Positions 1 to 59,841 are shown, counted from the first letter of the stretch. The stretch: 64,000 nucleotides of DNA from Bacteroidia bacterium (GCA_026414975.1 JAOAHZ010000009.1:8038-72037); one strand, 5' to 3'. Translations and numbers: made by a program. The notes: a model not told the origin generated them from the letters alone.

Positions 1-631
1 CCGATTTCGTCTCTCCTCCATTGAACCCAATCTACTCTCGGACGAGATACTGGACTTCGTGGCGAACCATCCCCGCTGGGCCCCTCACTTTCATCTACCC
101 CTTCAAAGTGGAAGCGACAAGCTACTGCGATCCATGCGGCGACGCTACCGACGCGCCCTGTATGAGAACCGCATAGAAACCATTCGTCGGTACTTTCCCA
201 CAGCAGGTATCGGCGTAGATGTCATCGTAGGCTTTCCCGGCGAAACCGAAGAGGACTTCAAGGAGACCCAGCGGTTCTTGGCAGACTTACCCGTAAGCTA
301 TCTTCATGTATTTCCCTACAGTGAGCGACCGGGTACGCCGGCAGCTACACTACCCGACTCGGTGCCTTGGGATCAGCGTCTTTGGCGCAGTGAAGTACTA
401 CGAGACCTCTCTCATCGTAAGCGGCGAGCCTTTGCTGAGAGCTGTTTAGGCAAAACCCTCCATACCCTCATAGAGACAGACGGTGAAGGCCTGACCGAAA
501 ACTACCTGCGAGTGCGGGTGGAGAATGCTCCAGCGGGCGAACTTATTGCCGTGCAACTCACTGGAAAAGAGGAGGAGGGGATTTTTGAAGCACAGCGAGT
601 GAGCTATTCTGTAGATTGTGGGGTCGCTTAA
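1..631 (+). CDS. Radical-SAM methylthiotransferase (MiaB/MtaB/RimO family), C-terminal part; the 5' end lies outside the window
   Basis: The reading frame is open from nt 2 with no stop before 631. It has the 'HFHLPLQSGSD' motif typical of MTTases, followed by a C-terminal TRAM-like domain (GKTLHTLIE...LRVRVEN). Confidence 0.75.
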   Translation, partial: RFRLSSIEPNLLSDEILDFVANHPRWAPHFHLPLQSGSDKLLRSMRRRYRRALYENRIETIRRYFPTAGIGVDVIVGFPGETEEDFKETQRFLADLPVSYLHVFPYSERPGTPAATLPDSVPWDQRLWRSEVLRDLSHRKRRAFAESCLGKTLHTLIETDGEGLTENYLRVRVENAPAGELIAVQLTGKEEEGIFEAQRVSYSVDCGVA

Positions 632-682
632 TGGCGGAATGTCTGAAGGGCATATGGGACGAAGCTCATTTGAAGCCGCCCA

Positions 683-1480
683 TTAGACCACCATGTACCG
701 CCGTCGCCGCCGCTCACTCAAAGCCACCACCAAAATGCTTAGCTCATACAACCCCCACAAAGGTATCGCCAAGAGAAGCTGGCTAAGCACATCTGGCGAA
801 GGCGTCAGAATCCCCCCCAAAACCACGGCGAGTAGAATGGCGTAGCGCCGCAGAGTTCTCAGCCCGCGAGCCGTAATGATACCCGCTTGACTGAGCCCCC
901 ATAGAAGCACGGGCAGTTGAAATACCAGTCCCACGGCCAAACAGGTTTGTACAATCAAGCTTATGACATCGCCAATGCGCCAGATATTTTCCACAGCCTC
1001 ACTTAGCCGAAATGTGGCAAAAAAGTACATCATGAAAGGCACCAGCACGAAATAAGCAAAGAGCACGCCCAGCAGGAACAGCCCCGATACATAGGCCACT
1101 ATGCCGCGAAGAGCTTGCCGTTCATGCTTATAGAGCCCGGGACGGACAAATCGCCACAGCTCCCACATCACATAAGGAAAGCCTAAAACCAGGCCTGTAG
1201 CTAAGGCTAAAACCATGGCTTTTAGAAACTGTTCGGACGGGTGCACTGCCTGCAGCCGCAGAGAGAGAGCAGGGGGACAGTGCCCGAGGTAACAAAGCAG
1301 CCGAGCTGTGGGAAAATCAGCTCGTAGCGGCCCTAAGAGCACCTCCCCCACTAACCATTCAATCTGCCAGAAGGCTATGACCGCTAACGCTACGATCACC
1401 CCTACACTGCGCCAAAGATGCCAGCGAAGGTCCTCCAAATGAGCCCAGAAAGGCTTTTCTCGTTCTTGATCCAAAGGCAT
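683..1480 (-). CDS. tatC: Sec-independent protein translocase TatC
   Basis: 265-aa polytopic membrane protein. The N-terminus 'HLEDLRWHLWRSV' matches the TatC signature 'HLxELRxRL', with about 6 TM segments. Its start lies 1 nt from the stop of the upstream gene. Confidence 0.8.
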   Translation of the reverse strand: MPLDQEREKPFWAHLEDLRWHLWRSVGVIVALAVIAFWQIEWLVGEVLLGPLRADFPTARLLCYLGHCPPALSLRLQAVHPSEQFLKAMVLALATGLVLGFPYVMWELWRFVRPGLYKHERQALRGIVAYVSGLFLLGVLFAYFVLVPFMMYFFATFRLSEAVENIWRIGDVISLIVQTCLAVGLVFQLPVLLWGLSQAGIITARGLRTLRRYAILLAVVLGGILTPSPDVLSQLLLAIPLWGLYELSILVVALSERRRRRYMVV

Positions 1481-1481
1481 C

Positions 1482-2873
1482 TCACAAGCGAATGTGATAG
1501 ATTTGGTAGCCGTTTTTAGCTGGAGGAGGCAAAGCGAAGCACACCACCTCAGTCGGGCCTAAGTAAGCCGCCTCCATCGGCAGAATAAGCAAATCGCCCG
1601 CAGCATTAGTGCCCATTTCTTTGGAGACCGCCTCTCCGGTTTGGTGGTTAATCTGGTAAGCAAGCAGTTTGCCCTTACCAGTGCGCTCGGTAAGAAACGC
1701 AATGGTCAGGAAAGTTGGACTCACCCCTCGGAGAAAAGACACCAGGCGAAGGTCTGGCTCTTTTTGGCGCTTCTCAATACGATAGGCCCATCCATAGGCA
1801 AGAGTATCCCCAGCTTTTTTCCAGCGAACCACCCAGACATCATACGCTAAAGCAGTCCCACCTCGCAAACGCAAGTCCTCCCATAGTACATACAACGCCG
1901 TATCGCCCAGCGACAAAACTTCTCTGACAGTGAAGCTAGTCGGTTCTTTGTAGAGATTATACCAGTCGGCTGGCAAAGGAGCTGTACTCCAGTAGAAAGC
2001 GCTGGTATCGCTCAGAGGAAAGGACAGACGCCCTATTATCCATCGCCCAAATCCCCCTTCTGTATGAGGTATAGTTTTTTGGTCGGGTGAGAAGCCTGCT
2101 ACATACACAGCCCGATTCGTGATGTGCAAATAGGGGGCGTAGAGAATCGTATCGGCGTTGAACTTCCACTGGCGGGTCGTGCGCGCTCGGGGGTCGTAAT
2201 ACATCACAGCGATAGATCGGTCAGCAGCCTGCTCAATAGTCCAAATGCCCTGCTTCCCATCCAAGGCGATAGCCAGTGGTACTCCACTCAAGGACCAGTC
2301 GCTGCTGCTACTGACTTTCCGCCCCATTTGGTTCCAAATCGCATACCAAGCTCGTTCAGGCAGTCCCTTCTTGCTCAACTGATAGGCATACCAAAGAAAA
2401 TGAGTGCTATCCGAAGCCACACGAATCCCGGCGGCCGTCGGGCTAACTGGGCGGTCGTAAGTGGAAATAATGGTCCACTTAGGCAGAATAGGCTGTCCTT
2501 TCAAGTCGTAGAAGCGAGCCACCTCTTGCTTAGCCCCCTTGGCTAAAGGGTCTTCATCGTAAGAAAAAAGTACCAGCCCCTCCTTTAGCGCTATGAGACG
2601 AAGGGAGCGCCCCTCCCCCTCCTGCGGCAGGTCAATATAATGAGACCACTGCGTGAAATAGTCTAAGTTGAGGCATTCTATGTACCAGCCCGGCTTGGGT
2701 TTATCTTGAGCCCAATACTCTATGTAGGCAAAACGCCCCTTTCCCGCTGGCACAAGCCCTCGAGGCAAACCCACTTTCTCCACCGAGTAGCCTTTCACCT
2801 CAATCTGAGTACGACTCACGATACGCTGCGCCACGACTATTCCCAACAGAAGAATCAACTTTACCTGCATCAC
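1482..2873 (-). CDS. Hypothetical secreted protein (463 aa) with an N-terminal signal peptide; no family recognised
   Basis: Long ORF with a hydrophobic N-terminus (MMQVKLILLLGIVVAQ). It sits tightly between the histidine kinase (18-nt gap) and tatC (1-nt gap). Rich in W/Y, possibly a beta-rich periplasmic protein. Confidence 0.55.
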   Translation of the reverse strand: MMQVKLILLLGIVVAQRIVSRTQIEVKGYSVEKVGLPRGLVPAGKGRFAYIEYWAQDKPKPGWYIECLNLDYFTQWSHYIDLPQEGEGRSLRLIALKEGLVLFSYDEDPLAKGAKQEVARFYDLKGQPILPKWTIISTYDRPVSPTAAGIRVASDSTHFLWYAYQLSKKGLPERAWYAIWNQMGRKVSSSSDWSLSGVPLAIALDGKQGIWTIEQAADRSIAVMYYDPRARTTRQWKFNADTILYAPYLHITNRAVYVAGFSPDQKTIPHTEGGFGRWIIGRLSFPLSDTSAFYWSTAPLPADWYNLYKEPTSFTVREVLSLGDTALYVLWEDLRLRGGTALAYDVWVVRWKKAGDTLAYGWAYRIEKRQKEPDLRLVSFLRGVSPTFLTIAFLTERTGKGKLLAYQINHQTGEAVSKEMGTNAAGDLLILPMEAAYLGPTEVVCFALPPPAKNGYQIYHIRL

Positions 2874-2891
2874 CTCAAATATAGGCTCCTT

Positions 2892-5800
2892 TCAAGAAAA
2901 GGATTTCTCCCCCTTGAGCGGAAAAGCTACATAAAAAGTCGTGCCTACCCCCACCTCACTAACGAATGAAATCTTACCATTCATGCGCTCCACGAGGCCC
3001 TTTGTAATGGCCAAACCCAAGCCTGTACCCGTACGGTGGGTAGTGAAGTAAAACTCAAATATCCTCTCCCTAACCTCGGGAGGAATGCCAGGCCCATTAT
3101 CTTGAATAGCTATGATTGCTTCACTGCCCTCTTGCATGAGAACCACCCGAATCTGAGGCGCTGCAGCCCCCTCCAGAACTTGAAGGGCATTTTGAAGCAG
3201 GTTGTTGAGGACTTGCTGGAGGGCATCAGGGTTGCCTTCTATCCAGAGAGGGGTAGGAGGCAGGTCTAAAGTGAAAGTGATATGAGGATTTTGAGTAAAG
3301 GGATGAAGCTGATCTTCTAAGAAAGCGTTGAGATTCACCGGCTGTAGAGCGAGTTCTTCGGCAGACCCGAGCTTAGCAAAGTTCATGAAAGCGTTAGCTA
3401 TCCTCACCAGAGCCTCTATACGCTGAAGGAGGCGCGTGGATATGTCTCGCAGCTTGTCAGGCTCTACCACAGGCATTCGCTGAAGGTGCTGAAGGTGTAT
3501 TTTGAGAGGGGTGAGCGCTGTCTTTATTTCATGAGCCGCTTGAAAAGCCATTTCTTGCTGGCTCACTCGGCGCAGGGTCCGCTCTAACTGACGCTGGCTA
3601 GCACGCAACCGCTCCACCATTTCGTTATAGGCAGTAACAAGGGTGGCTATTTCATCATTCCCACCCTTCCATACAAGCAAAGGAGGGTCTGGTGTCTCAG
3701 GAGCTGAACGCAATTGGGTCGCAACCCGCTGAAGCCCTCCCGCAAACCGCTCTATTAAAAGCAGCCCCAGCAAAATAGATACCAGAGAAAGAAGCAGATA
3801 AGCATTCACCGTATAACCTATGAAGTACCGAAGGGGCTCATAAAAGGAGCTCTTGGGGAGGGGTTGGGGGATATGTAGAATCCCTAAGAGTTTGCCCGTT
3901 TCGGTTCGGAGAGGGGCATATCCTACCAAGCGCCCCAGCCGGCTGTCTACTTCCACGATAGGGCCGCTCCCAGCTTGATACATCTCGTGAAGGATATGAG
4001 GGTCAATAAAAGGCGAGACCAGATGATCCCAGTAAGCTATGGGCAAAGTACTGCTATAAAGGGCCCCCTGACTCGTGTAGATAAATGCTTCGGATTGAGA
4101 AAGCGAACCGATGCGCCGCATCAAGTCCCTTACGAAAGACTCCTCACCAGCGAGGTAATTTTGTAGCCAGTAAGCCAGCTTCTCCAAAAGAATCGCCTCG
4201 CCCGACAGATAGCCACTGACCGTAGTGAGCTTCTGAATAAGCTCCTTCTTACGCTGATTTTCATTTATTCGCAGAAAAAGGAAAAAAGTTGCAAGCAGCA
4301 TCACGATAAGAGGTAGAAACACCAGGGAACCAAACAAGGCCTGGAATCTTTGCACAAAGGAAGCATCCCGTCTATACAAAGCTCGGAATATCAGGCAGAT
4401 TCTTTCAGACCTTTCCAGAAAGAGGCCTATAGCTAAAAGGGTGAGAAAAATAGGAAAAGTAGCTAAGTAGGCTGACCTATCCCGAGCCGGCAAACGAAGA
4501 TAGACGGTGAGGGTAGGAGAAATGGGAGCGATGTACTCGTAGCTGTTCTCTGTCTCCCGCCAAAAGGGTACGGCCTTAGGTTGGAAAGGTAAGAGAGTTG
4601 GAAATCTTTCGCTTCCCCACCAGCGGATAAGCCGTCCCTGCTCATAGAGAGCATATGGAGGCAGGGACGGCTCAGATATGGCCCTAACTCGGCTAAGGAG
4701 GGGTTGAGTCCGAGGATAAAGTTCTATCTGAACTTCTAAAGGGAGGATATCCGGAAAAGTAATAGGGATGCGAGCGATATAGATGTAGCGAGGCGTACCC
4801 TGAGTGACAAAGTACAGATGGGGGGCTAAGGGTATGGAGATGGCTTTACCGGCTATCTGACGCCAGTTGAGAGGCCGCAGTTCAAAGAGGTTATCGGCGC
4901 GCCCCCCTCCCTCTGAACGCCAGCAAGACACTACAACTTCGTAGGCATCCCCCAGCGAGAATAGATGCCGTTGGATGAGCTTTCCGATAAAGCGAGCATC
5001 TATGAGTTGATCTTCCACGCTGAGGCTCTGCCAAAGGACTGTATCGGAAGCTATCTTCGGTAGGATTTGAGCCAGACGATATTCCAAACTGGGCTCCCGC
5101 AATCGGGCCACCTGAGAGGCATGAGCTTCAGCAATGAGACGAGCTCGCCATTCTTGTCCCCAGCTTATCCAAGCGTTTATGCCGCCAATCAGCAAGAGAA
5201 AATCTAAGATATAGCCGACATACCTGGGTAAATGCTTAGTCAAAAGCGGCGATAAGCATAGAATAGCTAAAACTATGCTCCCACCTATAGAGAGACCTAA
5301 GGCTCCAAATAATAGACCTCCCACTCCAGCTACAGCGATATGGACGATAGGAGCTGGAAAAGGCTGAGTCTGTAGATACCCGAGAACCTGACGCGATATG
5401 CTCAAGGCCACGCCCCAGCATGCAAGCTGAGCCAGATTCGGTTCGCGTAGAGGGTCTATCTCCAACTGACTGTGCCTTGCTATCAGATAGACAGCTCCAC
5501 CAAATAGTCCCCAAAATACCCAATACCCAACGGGATAGGTCCACTTACTGGAGAGTGGAAGGGTCGGAAGCAGCTGAGCTATGCAGAAAAGTATGGCAAG
5601 GCTCCAAATAAGGTCCCATACACTAGTATGGAGCGGACTAATGGCAAAGCTTTCAGAAGAAAAGAGTTCTGAATCAATAAGGCGACCCGGAATATTTGTC
5701 CAGTGAAGAATTTGCCATACGATAAAGAGAACACCTGTATAGAGCAAGATAGCTTGACGATACCGAGCTCTCAGGTAATACCACAACCCAGTCAATCCGA

Positions 5801-6425
5801 ACAGCATGGCTATCCCCAAGAAGCTGAGATAGACCCAGCGCAGGGGAAGGCGTAAAGCTTCGCCACATCCTATGTACAGCCGCAGGAGGGGCTGACCCCG
5901 ATGATCCGAGAGCACAATAGCCCGGTCCCCTGACTGACGATGAAAGCATAAGGCTTGAATCCAAGCTGTGTTCCCCCACACAGGAAAATCCCACCGCTTG
6001 TGAATGCTCAGAGGCGGGGGATGAATCCAGATAGGCAGCAAGACCACTTGCCGCGTCGTATCGGAAAAAAACTTTAGCGCATAGTATAAGGCATGTTCAT
6101 CTGAGATGATCTCAGGGTCAGGGCTGACTAAGCTGGGAAGAGTCTGAGGGAAAAGCCAGCGGGTAGTATTCCAACGGCGCAGTTGTCCGCTGGTTTTATC
6201 GTATTCCAGAAAAAGAACCTCGGACTCCCTGTACCACCCTGCTGGATTATCCCGATAGGCATAGAAGAGCGCCAGGGTGCGACGGATTTTCTCCTGCCAC
6301 ATTTGGCTCACCAGACGCTGGAATAGCTCTTGGTGCCAGCGTAGGGGAGCGAGTTCGTTGAGAAGAGCTATAAGGATTCCCAATCCAGCTACCGAGGCGG
6401 CGAAGCGCAGAGCCCATTTGGGCAT
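2892..6425 (-). CDS. Large multi-TM sensor histidine kinase (1177 aa)
   Basis: C-terminal HisKA (AHEIKTALTPLKIHLQHLQ) plus HATPase_c (NLLQNALQ...DNGPGIP...GTGLGLAI). Upstream is an N-terminal TM segment, a ~190-aa extracytoplasmic segment, a 7-8 TM block, a second ~230-aa segment, a TM, a third ~170-aa segment, a TM, and a HAMP-like linker. Confidence 0.9.
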   Translation of the reverse strand: MPKWALRFAASVAGLGILIALLNELAPLRWHQELFQRLVSQMWQEKIRRTLALFYAYRDNPAGWYRESEVLFLEYDKTSGQLRRWNTTRWLFPQTLPSLVSPDPEIISDEHALYYALKFFSDTTRQVVLLPIWIHPPPLSIHKRWDFPVWGNTAWIQALCFHRQSGDRAIVLSDHRGQPLLRLYIGCGEALRLPLRWVYLSFLGIAMLFGLTGLWYYLRARYRQAILLYTGVLFIVWQILHWTNIPGRLIDSELFSSESFAISPLHTSVWDLIWSLAILFCIAQLLPTLPLSSKWTYPVGYWVFWGLFGGAVYLIARHSQLEIDPLREPNLAQLACWGVALSISRQVLGYLQTQPFPAPIVHIAVAGVGGLLFGALGLSIGGSIVLAILCLSPLLTKHLPRYVGYILDFLLLIGGINAWISWGQEWRARLIAEAHASQVARLREPSLEYRLAQILPKIASDTVLWQSLSVEDQLIDARFIGKLIQRHLFSLGDAYEVVVSCWRSEGGGRADNLFELRPLNWRQIAGKAISIPLAPHLYFVTQGTPRYIYIARIPITFPDILPLEVQIELYPRTQPLLSRVRAISEPSLPPYALYEQGRLIRWWGSERFPTLLPFQPKAVPFWRETENSYEYIAPISPTLTVYLRLPARDRSAYLATFPIFLTLLAIGLFLERSERICLIFRALYRRDASFVQRFQALFGSLVFLPLIVMLLATFFLFLRINENQRKKELIQKLTTVSGYLSGEAILLEKLAYWLQNYLAGEESFVRDLMRRIGSLSQSEAFIYTSQGALYSSTLPIAYWDHLVSPFIDPHILHEMYQAGSGPIVEVDSRLGRLVGYAPLRTETGKLLGILHIPQPLPKSSFYEPLRYFIGYTVNAYLLLSLVSILLGLLLIERFAGGLQRVATQLRSAPETPDPPLLVWKGGNDEIATLVTAYNEMVERLRASQRQLERTLRRVSQQEMAFQAAHEIKTALTPLKIHLQHLQRMPVVEPDKLRDISTRLLQRIEALVRIANAFMNFAKLGSAEELALQPVNLNAFLEDQLHPFTQNPHITFTLDLPPTPLWIEGNPDALQQVLNNLLQNALQVLEGAAAPQIRVVLMQEGSEAIIAIQDNGPGIPPEVRERIFEFYFTTHRTGTGLGLAITKGLVERMNGKISFVSEVGVGTTFYVAFPLKGEKSFS

Positions 6426-6426
6426 A

Positions 6427-7050
6427 TCAAGACTCTGGGTGATGACGACGTATCATTGGACCATACTTGTGTAGAAAGCTGTACTTTTCGGTGCTCAGTA
6501 ATATGACGCGGTCTATTATCTCTCGTAGAGGCATCGGTACCTCCAACACAACCTGTCGCCTGTCTCTCAGCAGAAGAACATACCGCGCCAGTCCTCCTTC
6601 TTCGTGATGATAGTAGTCGTAAACTTCCTCCCAAGGCACCAGCTCCACCATCCACTCTAAGCGACTCCAGTTGAACTTTATCAGGTAGACGCCTCTATCG
6701 GATAAAACGTGCAGGTGATGGGCCCGAAGCCCAGCGAAGAGTAGGATTAGGACAGACACCTCCAAGAAACACAAGGAAGCGATATCCCGCCAGAGAGGGG
6801 CTGAAAAAGAACCGGGGAAAAGCCGAATAGAAAAGGCATAGGAGAGCATGCCGGCGCTGAGGAAGATAAGCACGAACAAGAATATAACGGCTGTCCAAAG
6901 ACCAAAAGCAGGTTTGTCCCAGCGGACAAGGAGCCCTGTGAGACGCTTCTTCAGGCGGAATGTAGCCCACCAGGCCCCCACAGCTAAGAGGCCAGACAGT
7001 ACAACGAGAGCCTCCAGGGCATAGGTAACTCCCATCAAGACATCTGGCAT
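6427..7050 (-). CDS. Hypothetical integral membrane protein (207 aa, ~4 TM plus a C-terminal soluble domain)
   Basis: Four hydrophobic segments followed by a ~90-aa charged domain (YLIKFNWSRLEWMVELVPWEEVYDYYHHEE...). There is a 1-nt gap to the kinase start, so the two are co-operonic. Confidence 0.5.
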   Translation of the reverse strand: MPDVLMGVTYALEALVVLSGLLAVGAWWATFRLKKRLTGLLVRWDKPAFGLWTAVIFLFVLIFLSAGMLSYAFSIRLFPGSFSAPLWRDIASLCFLEVSVLILLFAGLRAHHLHVLSDRGVYLIKFNWSRLEWMVELVPWEEVYDYYHHEEGGLARYVLLLRDRRQVVLEVPMPLREIIDRVILLSTEKYSFLHKYGPMIRRHHPES

Positions 7051-7087
7051 ACGCAGGTATAGCTAAGATAGGGATTTCGGCTAAATC

Positions 7088-7987
7088 TTAGTGGGGTGGG
7101 TCTTCTCGGCGAATAGAACGCACATCGGGATAGATTCGCTGAGCGATAGCTTGGGCGGTGGGTGTAGCAGCCGTCCCTCCGAGAGCGGTCTCTTTGAAGC
7201 GCGGATCCATAGCAGCTCCAACCTGACCCATCGCCTCCACCATTTCATCTACTGGAATAACCGCTGTATCGCCAGCGAGTGCCATTTGAGCGGCCGCCGC
7301 AGCGATGACGACAGCCGACCCGTTTCGCTTAACACATGGAAGCTCCACCAATCCAGCTACGGGGTCGCATATGAGCCCAAGCATGTTCATGATAGTAAGA
7401 GCGACCGCTTCAAATGTCTGATTCACATCCCCCCCTAAGGCATAGACTATACCAGCGGCTCCCATGGCAGCGGCGGTACCCGTCTCAGCTTGACATCCAC
7501 CGACCGCACCTGCAATGGAAGCCTTCTGCTCAATGATCAGAGCCACGCCGGCCCCGATTAGCATCGCCTCATATATCGTCTGAAGGGGCACAGCGTGGTG
7601 CTTCTCTAAGAAGGTATATATCCCTGGCAAGATACCCGAAGCCCCAGCGGTGGGAGCGGCTACGACCCGCCCCATGCAGGCATTGGTCTCCTTAGCCGCT
7701 GTAGCATAGGCCAAAAGCAGACTAAACTCGGGGCTGATTACATGAAGGGAGGCGTCCTTAATCTTTTTACCTGTATCCCGCACCAGCCCACTCGGTGTTT
7801 GCCTCGGCTCCCGCAGCCCGCTCTCCACCGCATCGCGCATGACGGCATACACCTGAGCTAATCGCGCCCATATCTCTCCTTCTGAGCGACCCTTCTGATG
7901 CATCTCGTAAGCTAAAACCACCCGCCAAAGAGGGACGCTCTGCGACTCCGCCATCAGCCGCCAAGTAGTAAAACTATCCAACTTCAC
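7088..7987 (-). CDS. sdaAA: L-serine dehydratase (iron-sulfur-dependent), alpha subunit
   Basis: Near-colinear with SdaAA: 'AAPTAGASGILPG', 'GGCQAETGTAAAMGAAG', 'NMLGLICDPVAGLVELPCVKRN', 'LGGTAATPTA'. Length of 299 aa is typical. Confidence 0.8.
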   Translation of the reverse strand: MKLDSFTTWRLMAESQSVPLWRVVLAYEMHQKGRSEGEIWARLAQVYAVMRDAVESGLREPRQTPSGLVRDTGKKIKDASLHVISPEFSLLLAYATAAKETNACMGRVVAAPTAGASGILPGIYTFLEKHHAVPLQTIYEAMLIGAGVALIIEQKASIAGAVGGCQAETGTAAAMGAAGIVYALGGDVNQTFEAVALTIMNMLGLICDPVAGLVELPCVKRNGSAVVIAAAAAQMALAGDTAVIPVDEMVEAMGQVGAAMDPRFKETALGGTAATPTAQAIAQRIYPDVRSIRREDPPH

Positions 7988-8168
7988 CCTCCGAAAATAA
8001 CGGTTTTAGATTGAATCTCGGCTCAGCCCAAAAGCCCAGAACAGAAAGACCTTAGGCTCATTTATGATCTTGCGACGGTCCTCAAGCATTAGACCCCCCA
8101 TACAGACCTCACTGAGCGACAAGTACGGATTTTTGCATGCCAAAAAATTTTTTTGCCAACTTTGTACC

Positions 8169-10073
8169 ATGCAAAAAGGGGGACTGATCCTGCTTCTCGG
8201 TGTAGCTGCGGCTCAGAGCGATACAATAGAGTTCAAGCTCAATCCAATCCTGATTCATGCGGAACGGCATACTCTTCTTGAGCCAAAGCGAATCTTCATC
8301 ACAGAAGAGACAGGCAACCTGACTTTAGGAGAGGCTCTGACAAGAGTGGCTGGGGTTGATTGGATGCAAACAGGAGGTTTCTTGACAGGCCGGCCTGTGT
8401 TGAGAGGGCATTCTTACACGCGAGTGGGGTGGATCATGAGCGGACTTATCCGAGAGGGGGCTTATTGGGGCGAAGATCACGGCTACGAAACCCCTCCTCA
8501 ACTCCTAACTTTTGAAACCGAGATTCTCTTAGGTCCTCAAAGCGTGCGTTATGGAAGCGATGCGATAGGAGGTATAGTGCGATTTCAGCCACTTGTACCC
8601 ACGCAGCCCTTCATCCACCTGCAAGCAACAGCGTTTAGTAATCCGGCGGGGTTCCTTATACAAGGGGGAGGCAGCGTCGGGAATACAGAGCGTTTCCTGA
8701 TGGGTGAGGTTACTCTTCACACGGCGGAAAATTTCTATACCCCTCGCCATGGCTTTGTCTGGAATACAGGTATGCGGAGCGGCTATGCTTACCTCACGGG
8801 TCGTATCTCTCCTCGAAAGTACCTGGTAGAGTTTCAGGGTTTTCAAACAGCGCAGTTATTAGGTATCCCCTCCCCCATATGGAATACAACGAACCGCCAG
8901 TGGTATTCTGAAGCGCAAGGCAGATACATCTCTCGGAGGGAGGCTTGGCGTTTCCAACGCGATTTACCCTTTCAGCGGATACTGTCTAGTGGAGGGCAAG
9001 TGCGTATCCTCCGAGAGCATACCTCGGGATCTACCACAGCTTTGATATGGGGTGCCCAGAGGAATGAACGGGCCGAATACGGCGAGCATCCATCAGAACC
9101 CGAAGTTCGCCTGCTCACGACTCGCACTGATATAGACCTTTCTCACCGATGGAAAGCCGGGGAAGGTGGGATTACGGGGTTTGTCAGACAGACCCGTGAT
9201 GAAGGAGAAGAGCCCTTCTTACCCCGAGTCCTTCATGGAGAAGGGGGAATATGGTTCCGCCAAAGTTTCGTAGGAAGCAGGGGACAAATAGCTTGGGGAG
9301 GACGCCTTCACGGGGGATTTAGTCAAGCCCGCTCCCAACACAAAACCTATCTCACTTGGGCTGGAGAGCTCACCTATGCCTACGCAGGGCACACCCTTCG
9401 GCTGACCCGAGGCTTCCGTATCCCTCATCCAGCTGAACTTTGGGCCTCCGGTTTCCATGAAGGCGCTAAGCGCTATGAATATGGAAGCCCTGATTTACCT
9501 GTGGAAATAGCCTATACAGCCGAATATTTGCTGTCTCTGTCTTCTATGCAGGTCCGTCCTTTTTTTCAGTATGTTCCCCGATACATTTTTGCGGAGCGGA
9601 TACCTGATACTTTGCCCAGTGCTGTTGGGGCCGCCTTTATCTACCGAACCCGACGAGCTATTCTGACGGGTGCAGAGGTAGAGTGGCAATTAAACTGGTT
9701 CTCCGTCGGAGTATCCTACGTGTACGGGCAGTTTCTCCTTCAGCGACAAGCCTCGGAAAGATTCATTCCGCGAATGCCTCCCCTTCGGCTGCGCCTCAGC
9801 GGACGACACAGGCTGAAGACATGGGTTCTCTTGCCTGAATTGCTACTGTATGCGCCTCAAAATAGAGCTTACTCCGTCCATGGTACCGAAGTGCCTACGC
9901 CCGGCTATATCCTCTTCCACTTTACCGCTCAGTGGCGATTTTTAGCCTTCGGCATACAGAATGCCTTAAGTAGTCGATATCAGCCTCATCTTAGCCCCTA
10001 TCGCCAGTGGATACCAAGAGGGATAGACTTCCCTTCTCAAAACTTCTTTCTCAGGCTGAACCTAGTGAGATAG
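8169..10073 (+). CDS. TonB-dependent outer-membrane receptor
   Basis: Plug-domain motifs (GRPVLRG..., 'YGSDAIGGIV') followed by a ~500-aa barrel. The track ORF starts at 8064, but a signal-peptide-like start 'MQKGGLILLLGVAAAQS' is at 8169. Confidence 0.8.
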   Translation: MQKGGLILLLGVAAAQSDTIEFKLNPILIHAERHTLLEPKRIFITEETGNLTLGEALTRVAGVDWMQTGGFLTGRPVLRGHSYTRVGWIMSGLIREGAYWGEDHGYETPPQLLTFETEILLGPQSVRYGSDAIGGIVRFQPLVPTQPFIHLQATAFSNPAGFLIQGGGSVGNTERFLMGEVTLHTAENFYTPRHGFVWNTGMRSGYAYLTGRISPRKYLVEFQGFQTAQLLGIPSPIWNTTNRQWYSEAQGRYISRREAWRFQRDLPFQRILSSGGQVRILREHTSGSTTALIWGAQRNERAEYGEHPSEPEVRLLTTRTDIDLSHRWKAGEGGITGFVRQTRDEGEEPFLPRVLHGEGGIWFRQSFVGSRGQIAWGGRLHGGFSQARSQHKTYLTWAGELTYAYAGHTLRLTRGFRIPHPAELWASGFHEGAKRYEYGSPDLPVEIAYTAEYLLSLSSMQVRPFFQYVPRYIFAERIPDTLPSAVGAAFIYRTRRAILTGAEVEWQLNWFSVGVSYVYGQFLLQRQASERFIPRMPPLRLRLSGRHRLKTWVLLPELLLYAPQNRAYSVHGTEVPTPGYILFHFTAQWRFLAFGIQNALSSRYQPHLSPYRQWIPRGIDFPSQNFFLRLNLVR

Positions 10074-10159
10074 GGCGCCAGGGCTCGCCCGCACAACGCG
10101 ACGACCTCGGCACCCCGTTTATGCGCGCTACAGAACCGCTACCCCGAAATGAATTCCCC

Positions 10160-13100
10160 TCAACGAAGTAGCGTTACCGTACCATGCTTTCTGACTTCCC
10201 GTCCCTCTCCATCTACTCCGACGAATAGATAGATATAAACCCCCTCAGGGAGAGGTTGTCCATCTTTATTTCTCCCATCCCAAACCCTACTCATGTCCCC
10301 TCCGTTTGTCCAAACCTCCCCTCCCCACCGATCATACAACACGACGGTATAGCGCTGGAATCCAGGGGCTTGAATAGCCCAAAAATCATTAATACCATCT
10401 CCGTTTGGAGTAACAGCTAAAGGAATCGCAAGACCTGGACACGCTGGAAGTCGCACTTGGGTAGAACTCTCAGCGGTGCAGCCGCCAGCGGTGGTTACGA
10501 CTAATCTGACAGATAGATTTATTTGCTGCGGATCGGGGAATGTACGCTCTTCAACAGATTGGCCCGATACGTTTTGCACGCCATCGCTCCATATCCAAGT
10601 ATAACTGAAAGGAGGCGTCCCTTGAATATCCGCCCTCACCCGGACAGCCCGAGGAGGAGGACATTCAGCTGCGGGCTCTACTTGCAACGCTCGTATCTCC
10701 ACTTGGTTAGCATAAGGCACCTCTATAGACACCGGACCGTAGGTGCAACCATTCTGATCAGTAAGTGAGACAGTATAGCGCCCCGGACGAAGTCCAGAGG
10801 CTACATTGTTAGATGATGTGGCCAAGATATTTCCAGCTGAGTCTCGCCAAGTGTATGTGTAAGGTGGCGTACCTCCAGTAACAACCAGTTGAATCTCTCC
10901 ATCGGCAGCTTCAGGGCAGGAGGCAGGACGAATCGCACTATCGCTGATAGCGATTGGAGTTGGCTCAGGAAAATTAACGGTAGCCGTTCCCGTACAGCCC
11001 AAGTTATCCATTGCTTCAACAGTGTAAGTGCCAGCGGGTATATCGGTAAAGACACCCGTGGTGTTCGTGATACCCAGAGGCTGCAGAGTATAAGTAAAGA
11101 CATTTCCTCCATTTCCACTGGTAGCTTGAACCGTGAAGCTGCCCAAGCCCCCATGGCAAAGTATGGGCTGCGTAACCTGTTGAAGCTGCACCGATACCGC
11201 TGCGCCTGGAGATACCTCCACCACTCGGGATACCAGACACCCATTTGCATCCCTCACCTGAATGGTATAAGAACCCACACCCAGCCCTGTGAAAGTAGGA
11301 TTTGAGGTCCAGGTGGGATAGGTAGGAAGAACGCTGTACTCATAGGGGGGTGTTCCGCCCTGTCCTTGAAGAGTAACTCGCCCTGCTGGGAAAGCATCAC
11401 ACGAACTAAGAAAGGAATCTACCAACACAACCATCAGTGGATCCGGCTGAGGAAGGGTTACAGTCAAGGTGCCAGAACACCCCAACGAATCGGTGGCTCG
11501 TACAGTATAAGTACCCGCTGGAATCCCTGTAAAGATACCTGTAGTGTTGGTGAGACCTAAGGATGGGATGCTATAAGTAAAGGTAGAGCCCCCGTTTCCA
11601 CCACTGGCTTGAACCGTAAAGCCCCCTGTTCCTCCATTGCACAATATAGGCTGATGTATCTGCTGAAGCTGCACCGATACCGCTGCCCCTGGTGTAACGC
11701 TCACAGTACGAGAAAAGACACACCCCTTAGAGTCCCGAACTCGCAGGGTATATGTACCTACCCCTAAGCCCGTAAAACTGGGATTGGAGGTCCATGCAGG
11801 GGCTACAGGCAAGACACTATACTCATAAGGAGGAGTACCTCCCTGACCCTGAAGCACAACGAATCCTGATGACTGCCCCCCACAAGCAATCAAAAGGGAG
11901 TCTAAAAGAACTAAGGTCAAAGGAGGAGGGTCTTGAAGCTGAACAACCCGCCGCTGGATACATCCCATCCCGTCGCGTATCCACACAGTGTAGGTTCCAG
12001 CTGAACGGTTGCTCCACGTAGAAGTAGCGCTCCAACCACTTGTAGGGGGTATTGAGGCAGCCCCCGTTACAAGCACAAACTGATAGGGAGATAGCCCTCC
12101 ACTTACCTGAGCCGATATCTGACCCGTCGGTGTGCCAATACAGCTCGGAATAGATAGGCTTACCTGAATGTTCATCGTATCCAACACAGAGAAGACAAAC
12201 GTGTCCGCTGCTGCCCCTGGAGGGACCGTAGTAGTGGGAAGGGCTACGTTACATTGGTCCTGAATGGGGATATTGTTTGTTCCACCTGTGGGAGCACCGG
12301 GATCGTTTGGATCGTTGTAGTTGATATAGAGGGTATAGCTTCGATTGGGCACGAGCGGCTGTCCAACCGTAAGTTCTACCGTGTTTGTTTGAGGAGGATT
12401 GAGAGGTGTAGCCGCAGTCAAGGGTACTGGGAGATTGGTAGTGTTGTCAAACAGGGTAAAATCCGACCCATCCAGGGCTACGGATGAAGGCAGGATTAGC
12501 TCATTGAATCGCACCCGGAGACGAGAGAGAGCGGGCAGTTGTGTGTCATAGTCATCACTGCATACTCGGTAGACACTATCGATGCGTGGAGGACTATTAT
12601 CAAAGTACTGCGCAGTGCCGTAGAAAGTGATGGTAAAACCGACATTATTGTTGCTCCAGTTATCCACTAAGAGGAGAAAGGTTTGACCAGCTGTTACATT
12701 GAGTCCGGGCATCACAGCCGGACCAATGGCACCATGGAATATACTGCCCGGCTGTGGATTTGTATGGTCTAAACCCGTAAGACCATTATTGGAGCAGTTT
12801 ATGCCCCCACAGCAGGTAGTTACATTAGGCATAGAAAAGTTACAGCGTATCGGGGAGGGCACATTCCCTGTACCTTGAAAGATGGAGCAGGGGTTTTGCA
12901 GTCCGGTTACATCCCATAGAGCAAAGTCATAGTCATTTCCAGTTGCGGCATTAGGACAGATGAGAAATCCCAAAGTTCCTCCACTTTGTATGGTGAATAT
13001 GAACCAGACACTGCGATGCTCACCCCCTGAAAGGCAGGTACCTCGGCCATTGGTACTTAGCTCGGACACGAGCCCAGCGGAAGGGATTCCCCCCGGGTAA

Positions 13101-13297
13101 CTATAAGTTGCGCCGCATAGACGTATAGCTCCGCTACAATCGGACTCGGGCAGATTGAGGGGGGTAGGAAACCCTGGGGGAGAGGGCGGGGAAGCATAAG
13201 GATTAATCCCTTGCTCTTTGAGCCGAATATACACGCTATCTGGCAGCCCTTGTGCCATCAGTAGCCCAGCCGACACGAGCACAAGCAATCTATGCAT
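10160..13297 (-). CDS. Large secreted SprB-repeat adhesin-like protein with a T9SS type-B (gliding-motility-associated, CHU_C-like) C-terminal sorting domain
   Basis: C-terminus 'AVTPNGDGINDFWAIQAPG...YDRWGGEVW' is the type-B CTD. There are multiple SprB-type repeats (…QGQGGTPPYEYSVLP…GTYTV…D..GC…). The N-terminus is a Cys-rich domain. The likely start is the signal peptide MHRLLVLVSAGLLMAQG at 13297; the track ORF extends to 13345. Confidence 0.85.
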   Translation of the reverse strand: MHRLLVLVSAGLLMAQGLPDSVYIRLKEQGINPYASPPSPPGFPTPLNLPESDCSGAIRLCGATYSYPGGIPSAGLVSELSTNGRGTCLSGGEHRSVWFIFTIQSGGTLGFLICPNAATGNDYDFALWDVTGLQNPCSIFQGTGNVPSPIRCNFSMPNVTTCCGGINCSNNGLTGLDHTNPQPGSIFHGAIGPAVMPGLNVTAGQTFLLLVDNWSNNNVGFTITFYGTAQYFDNSPPRIDSVYRVCSDDYDTQLPALSRLRVRFNELILPSSVALDGSDFTLFDNTTNLPVPLTAATPLNPPQTNTVELTVGQPLVPNRSYTLYINYNDPNDPGAPTGGTNNIPIQDQCNVALPTTTVPPGAAADTFVFSVLDTMNIQVSLSIPSCIGTPTGQISAQVSGGLSPYQFVLVTGAASIPPTSGWSATSTWSNRSAGTYTVWIRDGMGCIQRRVVQLQDPPPLTLVLLDSLLIACGGQSSGFVVLQGQGGTPPYEYSVLPVAPAWTSNPSFTGLGVGTYTLRVRDSKGCVFSRTVSVTPGAAVSVQLQQIHQPILCNGGTGGFTVQASGGNGGSTFTYSIPSLGLTNTTGIFTGIPAGTYTVRATDSLGCSGTLTVTLPQPDPLMVVLVDSFLSSCDAFPAGRVTLQGQGGTPPYEYSVLPTYPTWTSNPTFTGLGVGSYTIQVRDANGCLVSRVVEVSPGAAVSVQLQQVTQPILCHGGLGSFTVQATSGNGGNVFTYTLQPLGITNTTGVFTDIPAGTYTVEAMDNLGCTGTATVNFPEPTPIAISDSAIRPASCPEAADGEIQLVVTGGTPPYTYTWRDSAGNILATSSNNVASGLRPGRYTVSLTDQNGCTYGPVSIEVPYANQVEIRALQVEPAAECPPPRAVRVRADIQGTPPFSYTWIWSDGVQNVSGQSVEERTFPDPQQINLSVRLVVTTAGGCTAESSTQVRLPACPGLAIPLAVTPNGDGINDFWAIQAPGFQRYTVVLYDRWGGEVWTNGGDMSRVWDGRNKDGQPLPEGVYIYLFVGVDGEGREVRKHGTVTLLR
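10952..11920 (-). repeat. Intragenic tandem duplication, two ~483-bp units (161 aa each, ~70% aa identity) within the SprB-like gene
   Basis: Protein residues ~476-637 and ~637-798 are colinear. 27-nt near-identical DNA cores sit at 11177-11203 and 11660-11686, an offset of 483 nt. Confidence 0.8.
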
Positions 13298-24351: not shown

Positions 24352-26943
24352 TCACTCCGTGATAAGCAGCTTGAAGCTGACAGGCTGCCGATCAGAAGAG
24401 CGAACCTGGAGGGTATACAGACCCGCAGGAAGGGAGAGAGGCAACCGAGCCGGTAAGCTCTCTATGGTATATTGAGCGGCGACCTGCCCCATCGGGTTGA
24501 TCACATATACCACCGCTTGACCTTGCATAGCTTGATCAGCGTAAAGGTAAACTTCACTGCGAGTTGGATTAGGGAAGAGATACCAACCTACTGTCCCTTC
24601 CCTATCCACCAAGGAGGTAGATATGTTTAGACTTTGCACCAAACTATCCTCACCACAGCTATTTTGGGCATAGACTTTCACGGTATAGTTTCCTGGCGCA
24701 GCGTAAGTATGCGTACCAGACGCACCCGTTGCGGTTTGTCCATCTCCGAAGTCCCATCGCACACTAGAAGTATGAGCGACACTCACACTGTAAGTCAGCG
24801 TCAACCCGCTAGCTTGGAGGGATAAGTTGCTTAGCTGCGGGAGTGGTCTTATGATTAGCGTATCTCGGAGTGTATCTCGGACCCCTCCGCACCCTTCAGC
24901 AATGGCTAATACAACAGTGGGCCCGTTGCCCTGAGGAACCCGAAAACTTCCATATGCGTAAAAACTCATAGGAGACGCCCAGCTTGTAAGCTGATAGGGA
25001 ACGCCTGATTCGTACACCAATGTATTCCCCACGAAAATCTTTACATTTTGAGCTTCCCTACCACTTAAGCCGATAGGAATGATGGAGCCCGCGCATACGT
25101 CTCGGAGCCCGATTTGGAAATAGTTTAGCTTCGGACTACCTTCTAAGGCGGGTACATTGAATACCTGGGTGTGCCGCACACACCCATAAGTCTTTTCTAC
25201 CAAGAAGTAGCTGAAATCACTCGCAGGATAAGTTAGGGTTACAGTGTCAGTAGGATCGTTAGGAGTCACGACACTTCCGTCAGGAAGGATATAACGGATC
25301 GTGTGGGGTGGTTCAGAAGAAAATGGAATACTCGTGACCTTTACAACCCCTGCGGACCCTCTACATGAAGCTCCAAGTACCTCCAGGCTCACGGAGCTAG
25401 TGTACCCCGGAACAGACAAGGGCCAGGAGTGGCTATATGCTTTTCCACATCCATTCAACAATAAAACATCAACAGAATACGAGCCGGGATTAGGTGGGGC
25501 AGGCAGAAGGGTGTCTAATTGACTCCAAAGACGGAAGGGTAATCCTCCATTGAGCCAGGAGGCCGTGATACGAATCTCCGAACCTGCCTGACTTAGGGAG
25601 AAGTTAGCTGAAGGAAGTATGGTTAGGTTTATATTCCCCCCTGGGCATATAGGCTGGGGAGTGATGATAAGGAAATAGTTAGGGAATGAGTCTAGGATAG
25701 GAGGCACCCAGTCAATCGTATCAATTCGGCTGAGGCAATCTAACTCTTGACGCACGCGAATGCGGTGGGGAAGATTACCCGAGAAAGTTACTCGAATCTG
25801 GTTGCCTGTGGTATCCCAGACTCCATCATAGTTTATATCCCAAGATATTTGTCCCACACCCACGGCATAAATCTCTACCGGCGTCCCTGAACATGAGCCT
25901 GCATTGTTGTTAGAGTTTAAGAAGATGGGGGGAAGGGTAGAAGAAGCATCATAAACTCGGACAAATATTGTATCCTCATCAGTTATCCAAGGTGAGCACG
26001 GATACTTGATCGCATATACCATCTTGTAAAGACCAGCTGCTGAGGGCCTCCAATAACGGGGCTCACCATTCAAGCGAACACCTCCGACGACCGTGCCATT
26101 ATGATTCAGAACGATCATACTATCAGAAAAGTAGCCTTGGTATGCATTGTAGTCGGATTGGATATAAAATGAGTCTCCTAAACAGAGCCCCATAGGCCAT
26201 ACATAGGGATTCAGGGGAAGAGGTGTATTGAGACTGAAGGGATCAGTAGTTATGCCGTAGAGACCATTCTGTGAAACACCGCAGACGTATGTCGTTATTT
26301 CAATATTCCATGGTTGCAAATTAGGGACAGTAAGGGTGAAGGTTCTCCGATTGCGGAGAGTATCGGTAGGATTAGGACCATACCTGACAATGAAGCTATC
26401 TACACCTAAAGGTACTTTTAGAACGAAACTTAGGCTGGAGCCAGGACAATACACTTCAAGTGAGGAGAGTTCAGGCGACTCAATCTGTACATAAGGCCTG
26501 TAGTTTCGGAGGCGTCTAACCGCCGTGGCCGAATCTCCATTCGCAAAACGCACGGTCAAGAGATAAGTTGGATCGTATACAGAAGGATTGACATCGATCC
26601 CTACTTTGCGTCGGTTAGGCAATCCTGAGAAAGGAAATGAAATCGGGTTGGACGGAGAAACAGTAGCATCCCGATCGTCATAGATAACCATACTAACAGG
26701 AAAAAAGCCCGTAGCCTCGTACAGCGTCCAGCCTGTGATTCCTCGAGCTTGCATGCCTACTGTATCCACGACTATCCAGAGTCGTTGATTGCAGACAAAT
26801 CGCCCTGAAATGGGGTTTTGTCCATTACCAAGGGAATCCAAGTACACATCCCAAGCTGTCCAAGGCTGACGATTCTGAGCCCATCCGAGGGCCGCAAGAT
26901 AAGCTACGAATCTGGCGAGTCGCATGGCTAGTTTTCTACACAA
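24352..26943 (-). CDS. Secreted PKD-domain protein with a T9SS type-A (Por_Secre_tail) C-terminal sorting domain
   Basis: The C-terminal ~80 aa 'WYLFPNPTRSEVYLY...GLYTLQV' is the type-A CTD. A PKD domain is present ('WDFGDGQTATG...HTYAAPGNYTVKV'), and there is a signal peptide. Confidence 0.8.
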   Translation of the reverse strand: MCRKLAMRLARFVAYLAALGWAQNRQPWTAWDVYLDSLGNGQNPISGRFVCNQRLWIVVDTVGMQARGITGWTLYEATGFFPVSMVIYDDRDATVSPSNPISFPFSGLPNRRKVGIDVNPSVYDPTYLLTVRFANGDSATAVRRLRNYRPYVQIESPELSSLEVYCPGSSLSFVLKVPLGVDSFIVRYGPNPTDTLRNRRTFTLTVPNLQPWNIEITTYVCGVSQNGLYGITTDPFSLNTPLPLNPYVWPMGLCLGDSFYIQSDYNAYQGYFSDSMIVLNHNGTVVGGVRLNGEPRYWRPSAAGLYKMVYAIKYPCSPWITDEDTIFVRVYDASSTLPPIFLNSNNNAGSCSGTPVEIYAVGVGQISWDINYDGVWDTTGNQIRVTFSGNLPHRIRVRQELDCLSRIDTIDWVPPILDSFPNYFLIITPQPICPGGNINLTILPSANFSLSQAGSEIRITASWLNGGLPFRLWSQLDTLLPAPPNPGSYSVDVLLLNGCGKAYSHSWPLSVPGYTSSVSLEVLGASCRGSAGVVKVTSIPFSSEPPHTIRYILPDGSVVTPNDPTDTVTLTYPASDFSYFLVEKTYGCVRHTQVFNVPALEGSPKLNYFQIGLRDVCAGSIIPIGLSGREAQNVKIFVGNTLVYESGVPYQLTSWASPMSFYAYGSFRVPQGNGPTVVLAIAEGCGGVRDTLRDTLIIRPLPQLSNLSLQASGLTLTYSVSVAHTSSVRWDFGDGQTATGASGTHTYAAPGNYTVKVYAQNSCGEDSLVQSLNISTSLVDREGTVGWYLFPNPTRSEVYLYADQAMQGQAVVYVINPMGQVAAQYTIESLPARLPLSLPAGLYTLQVRSSDRQPVSFKLLITE

Positions 26944-59250: not shown

Positions 59251-59283
59251 CGCAGCAAAGATATCAGGAGTATCTTTGCTCGC

Positions 59284-59841
59284 ATGAAGCCCACCCTATG
59301 GCTCGTGGAAGACGATCCCGTCTGGACAGAGCTGATCCAATCCAAGTACAGCGAGAAGTATGCCATCCAGCACTTTCCTACGGTCTCAGCGGCTATAGAG
59401 GCGATGCGTTCTAACTCTCTGCCGAAATACATTCTCTTAGACTACCACCTACCCGACAAGCCAGGCACTGAGCTTCTCAAGGCGCTCCGCAAGCATGAAA
59501 ACCCAGACCTTCCACCTTATGTAATCATGCTATCGGCTCAAGAGGATGTACAAACCGCCGCAGACACTTTCACCTATGGGGCTTATGATTACGTCGTAAA
59601 GGGAGATCGAGTATGGGATCGGCTTCGTATCGCCTTTCGGAATATCCATCAGCAAGAAAAACTGGCCTCTCAAGTTATAGAGCTCCGCTTGAAAATAAAG
59701 CGCTCCCAGCTAATGGCATGGTCGGTGGTGCTGCTTGCCTTTCTAATCAGCTTGATGGTGTATCTTCAACTTTGCCCAGAAGATCGTCTGTGGAAATGGG
59801 ATCCCTTCGGTATGGGACAAAAGCCCTCCTGTGCGCCGTAG
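59284..59841 (+). CDS. Single-domain response regulator (CheY-like receiver) with a C-terminal hydrophobic helix
   Basis: 'LWLVEDDP', phospho-acceptor 'ILLDYHLPD', 'MLSAQED', 'YVVKG'. Then a coiled segment and 'LMAWSVVLLAFLISLMVYLQL'. Confidence 0.7.
   Translation: MKPTLWLVEDDPVWTELIQSKYSEKYAIQHFPTVSAAIEAMRSNSLPKYILLDYHLPDKPGTELLKALRKHENPDLPPYVIMLSAQEDVQTAADTFTYGAYDYVVKGDRVWDRLRIAFRNIHQQEKLASQVIELRLKIKRSQLMAWSVVLLAFLISLMVYLQLCPEDRLWKWDPFGMGQKPSCAP

Follow-up and report, generated by a model that had tools for sequence, protein, structure and literature searches.

Near the start of a 64,000-nucleotide (nt) stretch of DNA from a hot-spring Bacteroidia bacterium (GCA_026414975.1 JAOAHZ010000009.1:8038-72037), the whole of which we call the window, five open reading frames (ORFs) lie close together on the minus strand, and we conclude with high confidence that they are a recent juxtaposition of three independent units in one shallow lineage of hot-spring Bacteroidia. 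The genes are sdaAA; a gene for a 207-residue membrane protein, here U207; a gene for a 1177-residue histidine kinase, here HK; a gene for an exported 463-residue protein, here U463; and tatC, which encodes the TatC protein of the twin-arginine translocation (Tat) system. The sequence comes from a metagenome-assembled genome (MAG; locus tags N3E49_07335 and N3E49_07345). An earlier note on this DNA had described a five-gene minus-strand cluster with gaps of 37, 1, 18 and 1 nt, a layout that was reproduced when ORFs and gaps were recomputed, and had proposed that the cluster is an uncharacterised signalling module. Of that proposal, U207 and HK survive as a sensory pair, whereas U463 belongs with tatC and the five genes do not form a conserved operon. 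The explanation that we favour overall, and consider probable, is one of three units, in which U463 may work together with the Tat translocase and U207 and HK serve in sensing.

The case for three units is one of gene order. Loci were gathered by exact protein look-up, a scan of GTDB species genomes and a metagenome scan (a metagenome scan with the narrower alignment A6 returned three loci only); 30 related loci, given here with the prefix L, were compared, and their gene content was assessed by tblastn with the five window proteins. The full order sdaAA-U207-HK-U463-tatC is restricted to the window and its three nearest relatives (L004-L006), in which U463 is at least 66% identical to the window copy and the junction between HK and U463 ranges from +4 to -8 nt. 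None of the other 12 close-clade loci has it, the order being lost wherever U463 is 62% identical or less, and more distant relatives hold U207-HK and U463-tatC at separate places. In the MAG SKYB116, U463-tatC is found on contig 57 (L007) and sdaAA-U207-HK on contig 5 (L021); in MAGs with the prefixes RMK19_ and RMJ66_, the locus-tag numbers of the two units are thousands apart. Because the complete order is confined to the window and L004-L006 and the units are split elsewhere, the juxtaposition of these independent units appears to be recent. The earlier note had looked to conservation of the neighbourhood across related genomes, and that conservation fails beyond these three relatives.

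The kinase unit itself is stable: U207 and HK are adjacent in nine of nine loci, and the U207 stop lies 1-6 nt from the HK ATG. What surrounds them is not. The gene 5' of the pair is sdaAA in seven of the nine loci and uvrB in the other two (L019, L020); on the 3' side, HK is followed by a gene for a 1114-1116-residue protein in L018-L020 and by no same-strand gene in L021 and L022. This long ORF (L018 11503-14847, L019 11503-14853, L020 10169-13519) overlaps the HK stop by 29 nt. The product, which lacks a Pfam match, carries a signal peptide and has an aromatic last residue, as in outer-membrane barrels; no homologue of it was found in the window.

A single operon encoding an integrated signalling module, with U207 and U463 as partners of the kinase and TatC serving the module, would fit the tight gaps, the identical order in L004-L006 and the lack of a significant terminator, and on the first and last of these points the co-transcription proposed in the earlier note is conceivable in this genome. 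We nevertheless regard this reading as very unlikely. The order is lost in every relative beyond the identity limit given above, SKYB116 carries the two pairs on different contigs, and HK is followed by an unrelated gene or by nothing on its strand in L018-L022; over deep divergence U463 stays with tatC, not with the kinase, and it has a conserved promoter-like box of its own. Synteny thus largely refutes the single-operon signalling module.

The gene that does accompany U463 is tatC. It lies directly 3' of U463 in all 16 evaluable close loci, with a stop/start overlap of 1 nt in 12 of them, and the upstream neighbour of U463 differs in almost every close locus. The arrangement extends to distant members of the U463 family, 19-25% identical to the window protein, which are directly followed by tatC in six of eight loci (L023, L024, L025, L027, L028 and L029) at gaps of 7-198 nt; flanking genes other than tatC differ among these loci as well. 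With GC contents of 35% to 56% and an SHMT that shares only 62% identity with the window copy, the distant loci must come from lineages that are far apart. In two of these glyA, the SHMT gene, stands directly 5' of the pair (L023 4637-5908, L027 4639-5943); in the window, about 50 kb separate glyA from the pair.

Transcription signals point the same way. In Flavobacterium, the sigma-A -7 box spans positions -12 to -5 relative to the transcription start site (PMC9723704), and 16 of 17 close-clade loci have a box of the form TAnnTTTG 12-18 nt 5' of the U463 ATG, irrespective of the upstream gene; in L005 and L006 it sits within the 3' end of the HK gene. Since the box is kept in nearly all close loci, the U463-tatC pair is predicted to form a unit with its own sigma-A promoter. 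A variant, TA(T/A)CTTAG, occupies the same position before U207 in seven of seven loci, including L019 with its different upstream gene, and may likewise act as a promoter. No -7 box was found upstream of HK or tatC, as expected if both are translationally coupled second genes. Of the 37 copies of TAnnTTTG in the window, 12 precede the ATG of an ORF of 100 residues or more by 11-15 nt, where 0.5 would be expected by chance. Spacing between box and ATG is mostly 12-13 nt in the window, which implies leaderless or 1-nt-leader mRNAs, and the bicistronic U463-tatC mRNA would probably be of this kind. A generic sigma-70 promoter scan was uninformative, with 6 sites against 6.1 expected.

Internal promoters or terminators were the features that, according to the earlier note, would divide the cluster. 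Conserved predicted boxes do precede U463 and U207; terminators were not found, and the cluster is not split by one. A terminator-like hairpin at the 3' end of HK (2907-2926) was rejected: it scored no better than shuffled sequences (z -1.1) and is not conserved in L005 or L006. Several observations on the boxes reach beyond the cluster. From their spacing, roughly one window gene in four would have a leaderless or 1-nt-leader mRNA, and the leaderless share reported for Flavobacterium is about 5.5% (PMC9723704). The boxes also suggest starts later than the longest ORF for the genes of GDE, ArgRS, SHMT, the receiver protein and the SprB-repeat protein. Back-to-back -7 boxes occur at 59263 (minus) and 59271 (plus), before the divergent genes for topoisomerase I and a 185-residue receiver-only protein.

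What kind of protein is U463? The earlier note recognised no motif in either unknown protein, and neither U463 nor U207 matched a family at E<=10. Remote-homology searches with Pfam and PDB profiles returned nothing significant: U463 has no Pfam match at E<=10, no NCBIfam family and no significant PDB sequence match (best E 0.059). Structure prediction was more informative for U463. The AlphaFold2 model, built on an alignment of 23 homologues, has a predicted local distance difference test score (pLDDT) of 89 and a predicted template-modelling score (pTM) of 0.88, and shows a propeller of eight four-stranded blades whose last blade is completed by the first strand past the signal peptide, an N-terminal 'velcro'. 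Structural likenesses include DPP4 and the propellers of glycoside hydrolases and lyases, all at 13% identity or less and template-modelling scores (TM-scores) of 0.5 or less. The propeller fold is clear from the model, which points to no particular relative. A profile search of 1.84 billion representative proteins gave 57 matches to the U463 family, about 45 of them full-length (474-533 residues, 19-25% identical to the window protein), and all members with a named source come from uncultured Bacteroidota. On these matches, U463 founds a small, uncharacterised Bacteroidota family. Six residues are invariant in it: Gln16, Tyr29, Glu332, Lys368, Gln370 and Asn423. In the model, blade 6 bears Glu332, Lys368 and Gln370 on its long hairpin, and Gln16 is the first residue past the predicted A|Q cleavage site.

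The signal peptide noted earlier is of the Sec type and ends in A-Q. Across 52 family members these peptides are short and end in A/S/G-Q; none of the 52 has a twin-arginine (RR) or Tat motif in its first 35 residues, in line with the earlier note on U463, and no conserved lipobox cysteine is present at the cleavage site. Lacking both features, U463 is predicted to be a soluble periplasmic protein exported by Sec, neither a Tat substrate nor a lipoprotein. These peptides also bear on the idea that U463 is a substrate encoded beside its translocase, as phoD is beside tatAdCd in Bacillus. Such neighbours of tatC are known in Bacilli (PMC3827258); the signal peptides contradict the idea for U463, and we give it almost no credence.

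The TatC of the window, the receptor subunit of the translocase, is canonical in sequence. It matches Pfam PF00902 with E 2.5e-60 (204 bits against a cut-off of 25.1) and TIGR00945 with a score of 176.4 (cut-off 132.7), Aquifex TatC (4B4A) aligns with it over the full length at E 6e-33, and six hydrophobic segments are apparent (residues 22-44, 88-108, 133-151, 175-193, 214-232 and 235-253). The first periplasmic loop (P1) carries an insertion of about 15 residues with a cysteine pair, C63 and C68 (residues ~58-77, nt ~1250-1309). This pair (LLCxxxxxC) is present in all TatCs linked to the propeller, close and distant (L001-L029), and absent from Aquifex TatC 4B4A. No tatA-like ORF lies in the window, as the earlier note had observed for the vicinity of tatC. 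A motif scan found no TatA or TatB in the window or the 30 loci, and neither did phmmer with the TatA and TatB of E. coli and the TatAd of B. subtilis as queries, a result to be read as 'not nearby'. Separate loci for tatC and tatA ('C <-> A') are listed for Sphingobacteria (PMC3827258, Table 1), and the missing tatA is therefore not unusual. The window tatC thus resembles the minimal TatAC loci of Sphingobacteria and other Bacteroidota in its six transmembrane (TM) segments and in having no tatA nearby; it differs from them in being preceded, and usually overlapped, by the gene of a Sec-exported propeller, and from Aquifex TatC in its cysteine-pair insertion. An IMG/VR contig (7000000181_000072) carries the C-terminal half of tatC only (L031 2570-2947), adjoining genes that resemble the replication and excision region of a mobile element; tatC may be an integration target in this human-associated Bacteroidota contig.

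HK and U207 form a clade-specific sensory pair. The recognisable domains of HK are confined to residues 920-1177: HATPase_c is found at E 1.5e-25, and HisKA (22.9 bits, Pfam cut-off 26.9) and HAMP (18.4 bits, cut-off 25) score below threshold. Twelve sequences share H965 and the motifs DNGPGIP, FEFYFTT and GTGLGLAI without variation, and with its N, G1, F and G2 boxes conserved throughout the kinase looks functional by sequence. Its best NCBIfam resemblances, restricted to residues 926-1174, are to AtoS (2e-40) and ZraS, with scores far below the cut-offs (138.8 against 646 and 101.8 against 479), so that HK is not an equivalog of either; the core can be described as of the AtoS/ZraS/NtrB type. 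Like these kinases, HK has HAMP, a DHp domain with the phospho-acceptor histidine and a full catalytic domain in its C-terminal 250 residues. In contrast to them, its 890-residue sensor, predicted to comprise three periplasmic domains and an eight-helix block, matches no known family, nor does U207, and no response regulator is adjacent in any of the nine HK loci. None is listed within 8 kb of HK in L018-L022, the cluster contains none, and the sole receiver domain of the window, as the earlier note had said, is far off (59284-59841, plus). No second kinase was found among the 46 long ORFs of the window (110 residues or more) that were scanned for domains. Given the type of its core and what is generally known of this group, the unlinked response regulator of HK is probably NtrC-like.

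The layout of the sensor was predicted from hydropathy, the positive-inside rule and an AlphaFold2 model of low confidence. TM1 would be followed by a periplasmic domain D1 (residues 27-187, nt 5865-6347), an eight-helix membrane block (188-441), a second periplasmic domain D2 (445-650, nt 4476-5093), a TM pair or hairpin (652-718) and a third, possibly PAS/PDC-like periplasmic domain D3 (719-872, nt 3810-4271); a further TM segment would then lead to HAMP, the DHp domain with H965 and the catalytic domain (nt 2895-3590). Hydropathy and the predicted secondary structure agree on the three extracytoplasmic segments, the minimum given in the earlier note. D3 is modelled in the order alpha-alpha-beta-beta-alpha-alpha-beta-beta-beta, which is typical of PAS/PDC domains, at a pLDDT of only 59-74. 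Neither D1, D2 and D3 nor the membrane block has a Pfam match at E<=10. Homologues of the N-terminal 894 residues of HK number 13 and those of U207 number 12; every one belongs to this thermophilic Bacteroidia clade, although both counts come from a word-indexed search and more distant relatives may exist.

U207 is a membrane protein, as first described, with a different topology: three TM segments are predicted (~4-33, 51-69 and 90-108) where four had been counted, together with a conserved cytoplasmic C-terminal domain of about 95 residues. It has no Pfam (E<=10), NCBIfam or PDB match, and its conserved motifs are WDKPAFGLWT and VELIPWEEVYDYY. Translational coupling suggests that U207 most likely binds the membrane block of HK as a co-sensor or modulator. 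This arrangement recalls kinases with small membrane accessory proteins, such as LiaF-LiaS and YycHI-WalK, in that the gene of a small membrane protein is translationally coupled upstream of the kinase gene. Of the two proteins that had been proposed as accessory partners, then, U207 remains a candidate for that role, being adjacent to HK in all nine loci, whereas U463 follows tatC and not the kinase.

The third unit, sdaAA, is a housekeeping gene outside both conserved pairs. It matches SDH_alpha (PF03313; E 4.6e-72, 243 bits), scores 236.5 with TIGR00718, marginally below the cut-off of 243.2, and is 83-87% identical in relatives. That it is an orphan was borne out, there being no SDH_beta among the 46 scanned ORFs of the window. 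In L002, a relative whose sdaAA was not found, SDH_beta is encoded about 6 kb 5' of U463, beside a gene for a 200-residue protein; the latter was considered as a U207 homologue and gave no tblastn match at E<=1e-3.

What, then, would a propeller do beside TatC? The persistence of gene order over deep divergence is widely taken to indicate physical or functional coupling, and as the U463 gene stays before tatC while its sequence diverges to about 20% identity, U463 likely works with the Tat translocase. More specifically, gene order leads us to propose, tentatively and at somewhat less than even confidence, that U463 is a lineage-specific periplasmic partner of that translocase. U463 would be exported by Sec, with its signal peptide cut before Gln16, and would fold into an eight-bladed propeller on the periplasmic side; it might then dock on TatC, possibly at the cysteine-pair insertion of loop P1, where it would receive, release or proof-read folded exported proteins. 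The fuller version of this proposal, in which U463 is a new Tat subunit or accessory in some uncultured Bacteroidota that docks on the P1 insertion and uses a conserved patch of Glu332, Lys368, Gln370 and Asn423 at the blade-6 hairpin to capture, release or quality-control folded substrates on the trans face of the membrane, we consider doubtful. A literature search returned no description of a propeller linked to Tat, and we know of no dedicated periplasmic component in the characterised Tat systems, which to our knowledge consist of TatA-family and TatC proteins only. A conceptual analogue may be seen in the periplasmic domains of SecDF and in PpiD/YfgM, periplasm-facing parts of an inner-membrane translocon that act on emerging substrates; U463 has no sequence or fold relationship to them.

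The main competing explanation is that adjacency to tatC reflects shared expression and nothing more, U463 being an independent periplasmic protein such as a BamB-like scaffold, a lectin or a glycan-active enzyme. We hold this to be possible, though we would not give it even chances. It has to accommodate an adjacency kept in 22 of 24 evaluable loci while all flanking genes change, as well as a stop/start overlap that suggests coupled synthesis, and conservation of this depth would be unusual in the absence of a functional link. The BamB-like variant faces further difficulties. BamB (YfgL), the propeller of the BAM complex, is likewise periplasmic and eight-bladed, but it is 12% identical to U463, which has neither a lipobox nor a PQQ or BamB Pfam match and whose genomic link is with tatC rather than with bam genes; the likeness is one of fold, no closer than that to eukaryotic WD40 proteins.

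A number of points weigh against the interpretation given here. With no terminator between HK and U463, read-through transcription of all five genes is possible in this genome, and the -7 boxes are predicted start signals, recognised by their sequence motif. Physical contact of U463 with TatC, and any effect of it on Tat export, is a deduction from gene order, and the modelled propeller fold says nothing about function. Two of the distant family members (L026, L030) are not followed by tatC, L030 representing the most divergent subgroup. The family is rare, with 57 representative clusters, so that U463 cannot be a core Tat subunit. The P1 insertion was recognised against Aquifex TatC and may or may not be confined to genomes with the propeller. 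On the kinase side, the HK model reaches a pLDDT of 66, which makes its domain folds and the topology of D2 provisional.

The coordinates of the genes and boxes discussed here are collected in the table.

Table. Genes and promoter-like boxes of the five-gene cluster, and start codons in the window preceded by a box (positions counted from the first letter of the window)
Feature	Position	Strand	Description
sdaAA, L-serine dehydratase alpha chain (iron-sulfur)	7088-7987	minus	299 residues, GTG start
Promoter-like box TATCTTAG	7063-7070	minus	differs by one base from the sigma-A -7 box; 20 nt 5' of U207 ATG
U207, membrane protein	6427-7050	minus	207 residues; candidate kinase accessory partner
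HK, orphan sensor histidine kinase	2892-6425	minus	1177 residues
Predicted sigma-A -7 box TATATTTG	2876-2883	minus	consensus TAnnTTTG, 13 nt 5' of U463 ATG
U463, predicted exported beta-propeller	1482-2873	minus	463 residues; public annotation ATG 2870, 462 residues
tatC	683-1480	minus	265 residues; begins 1 nt past U463 stop
Box-preceded ATGs	16350, 22392, 27001, 40553, 45643, 51800, 59284	plus	TAnnTTTG 11-15 nt upstream
Box-preceded ATGs	59250, 38973, 34833, 13297, 2870	minus	TAnnTTTG 11-15 nt upstream

Other parts of the window contain features of their own. A 1326-residue ORF (27001-30981, plus) joins an N-terminal glycogen/starch synthase domain to DUF3417 and an alpha-glucan phosphorylase domain, an unusual synthase-phosphorylase fusion; GDE, a GT4 glycosyltransferase and GH57, encoded at 16.3-20.7 kb, belong with it to a cluster for glycogen metabolism. 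The ORF of the receiver-only protein (185 residues) overlaps the beginning of a TPR-protein ORF; at its C-terminus the receiver protein carries an extension of about 75 residues for which Pfam has no match. The presence of a type IX secretion system in the organism is confirmed by two proteins, one large, built of SprB repeats and bearing a CHU_C signal for this pathway (10160-13297, minus), the other with a Por_Secre_tail (24352-26943). An Rfam scan of positions 1-12000 gave no match.

Finally, we would like to consider what these findings mean. The spacing of a motif alone can delimit transcription units in thermophiles that cannot be cultured, which is useful for annotation, and the window suggests an unusually high share of leaderless mRNAs. 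The kinase pair is of lesser weight, an addition to the many orphan kinases that brings a clade-specific sensor architecture and a coupled three-TM partner. The propeller gene that precedes tatC down to about 20% identity offers a concrete and testable candidate for a periplasmic Tat component. Bacteroidota add phylum-specific subunits to envelope machines, among them BAM, TAM and the type VI secretion system, and a propeller partner of the Tat translocase, if true, would fit this pattern.

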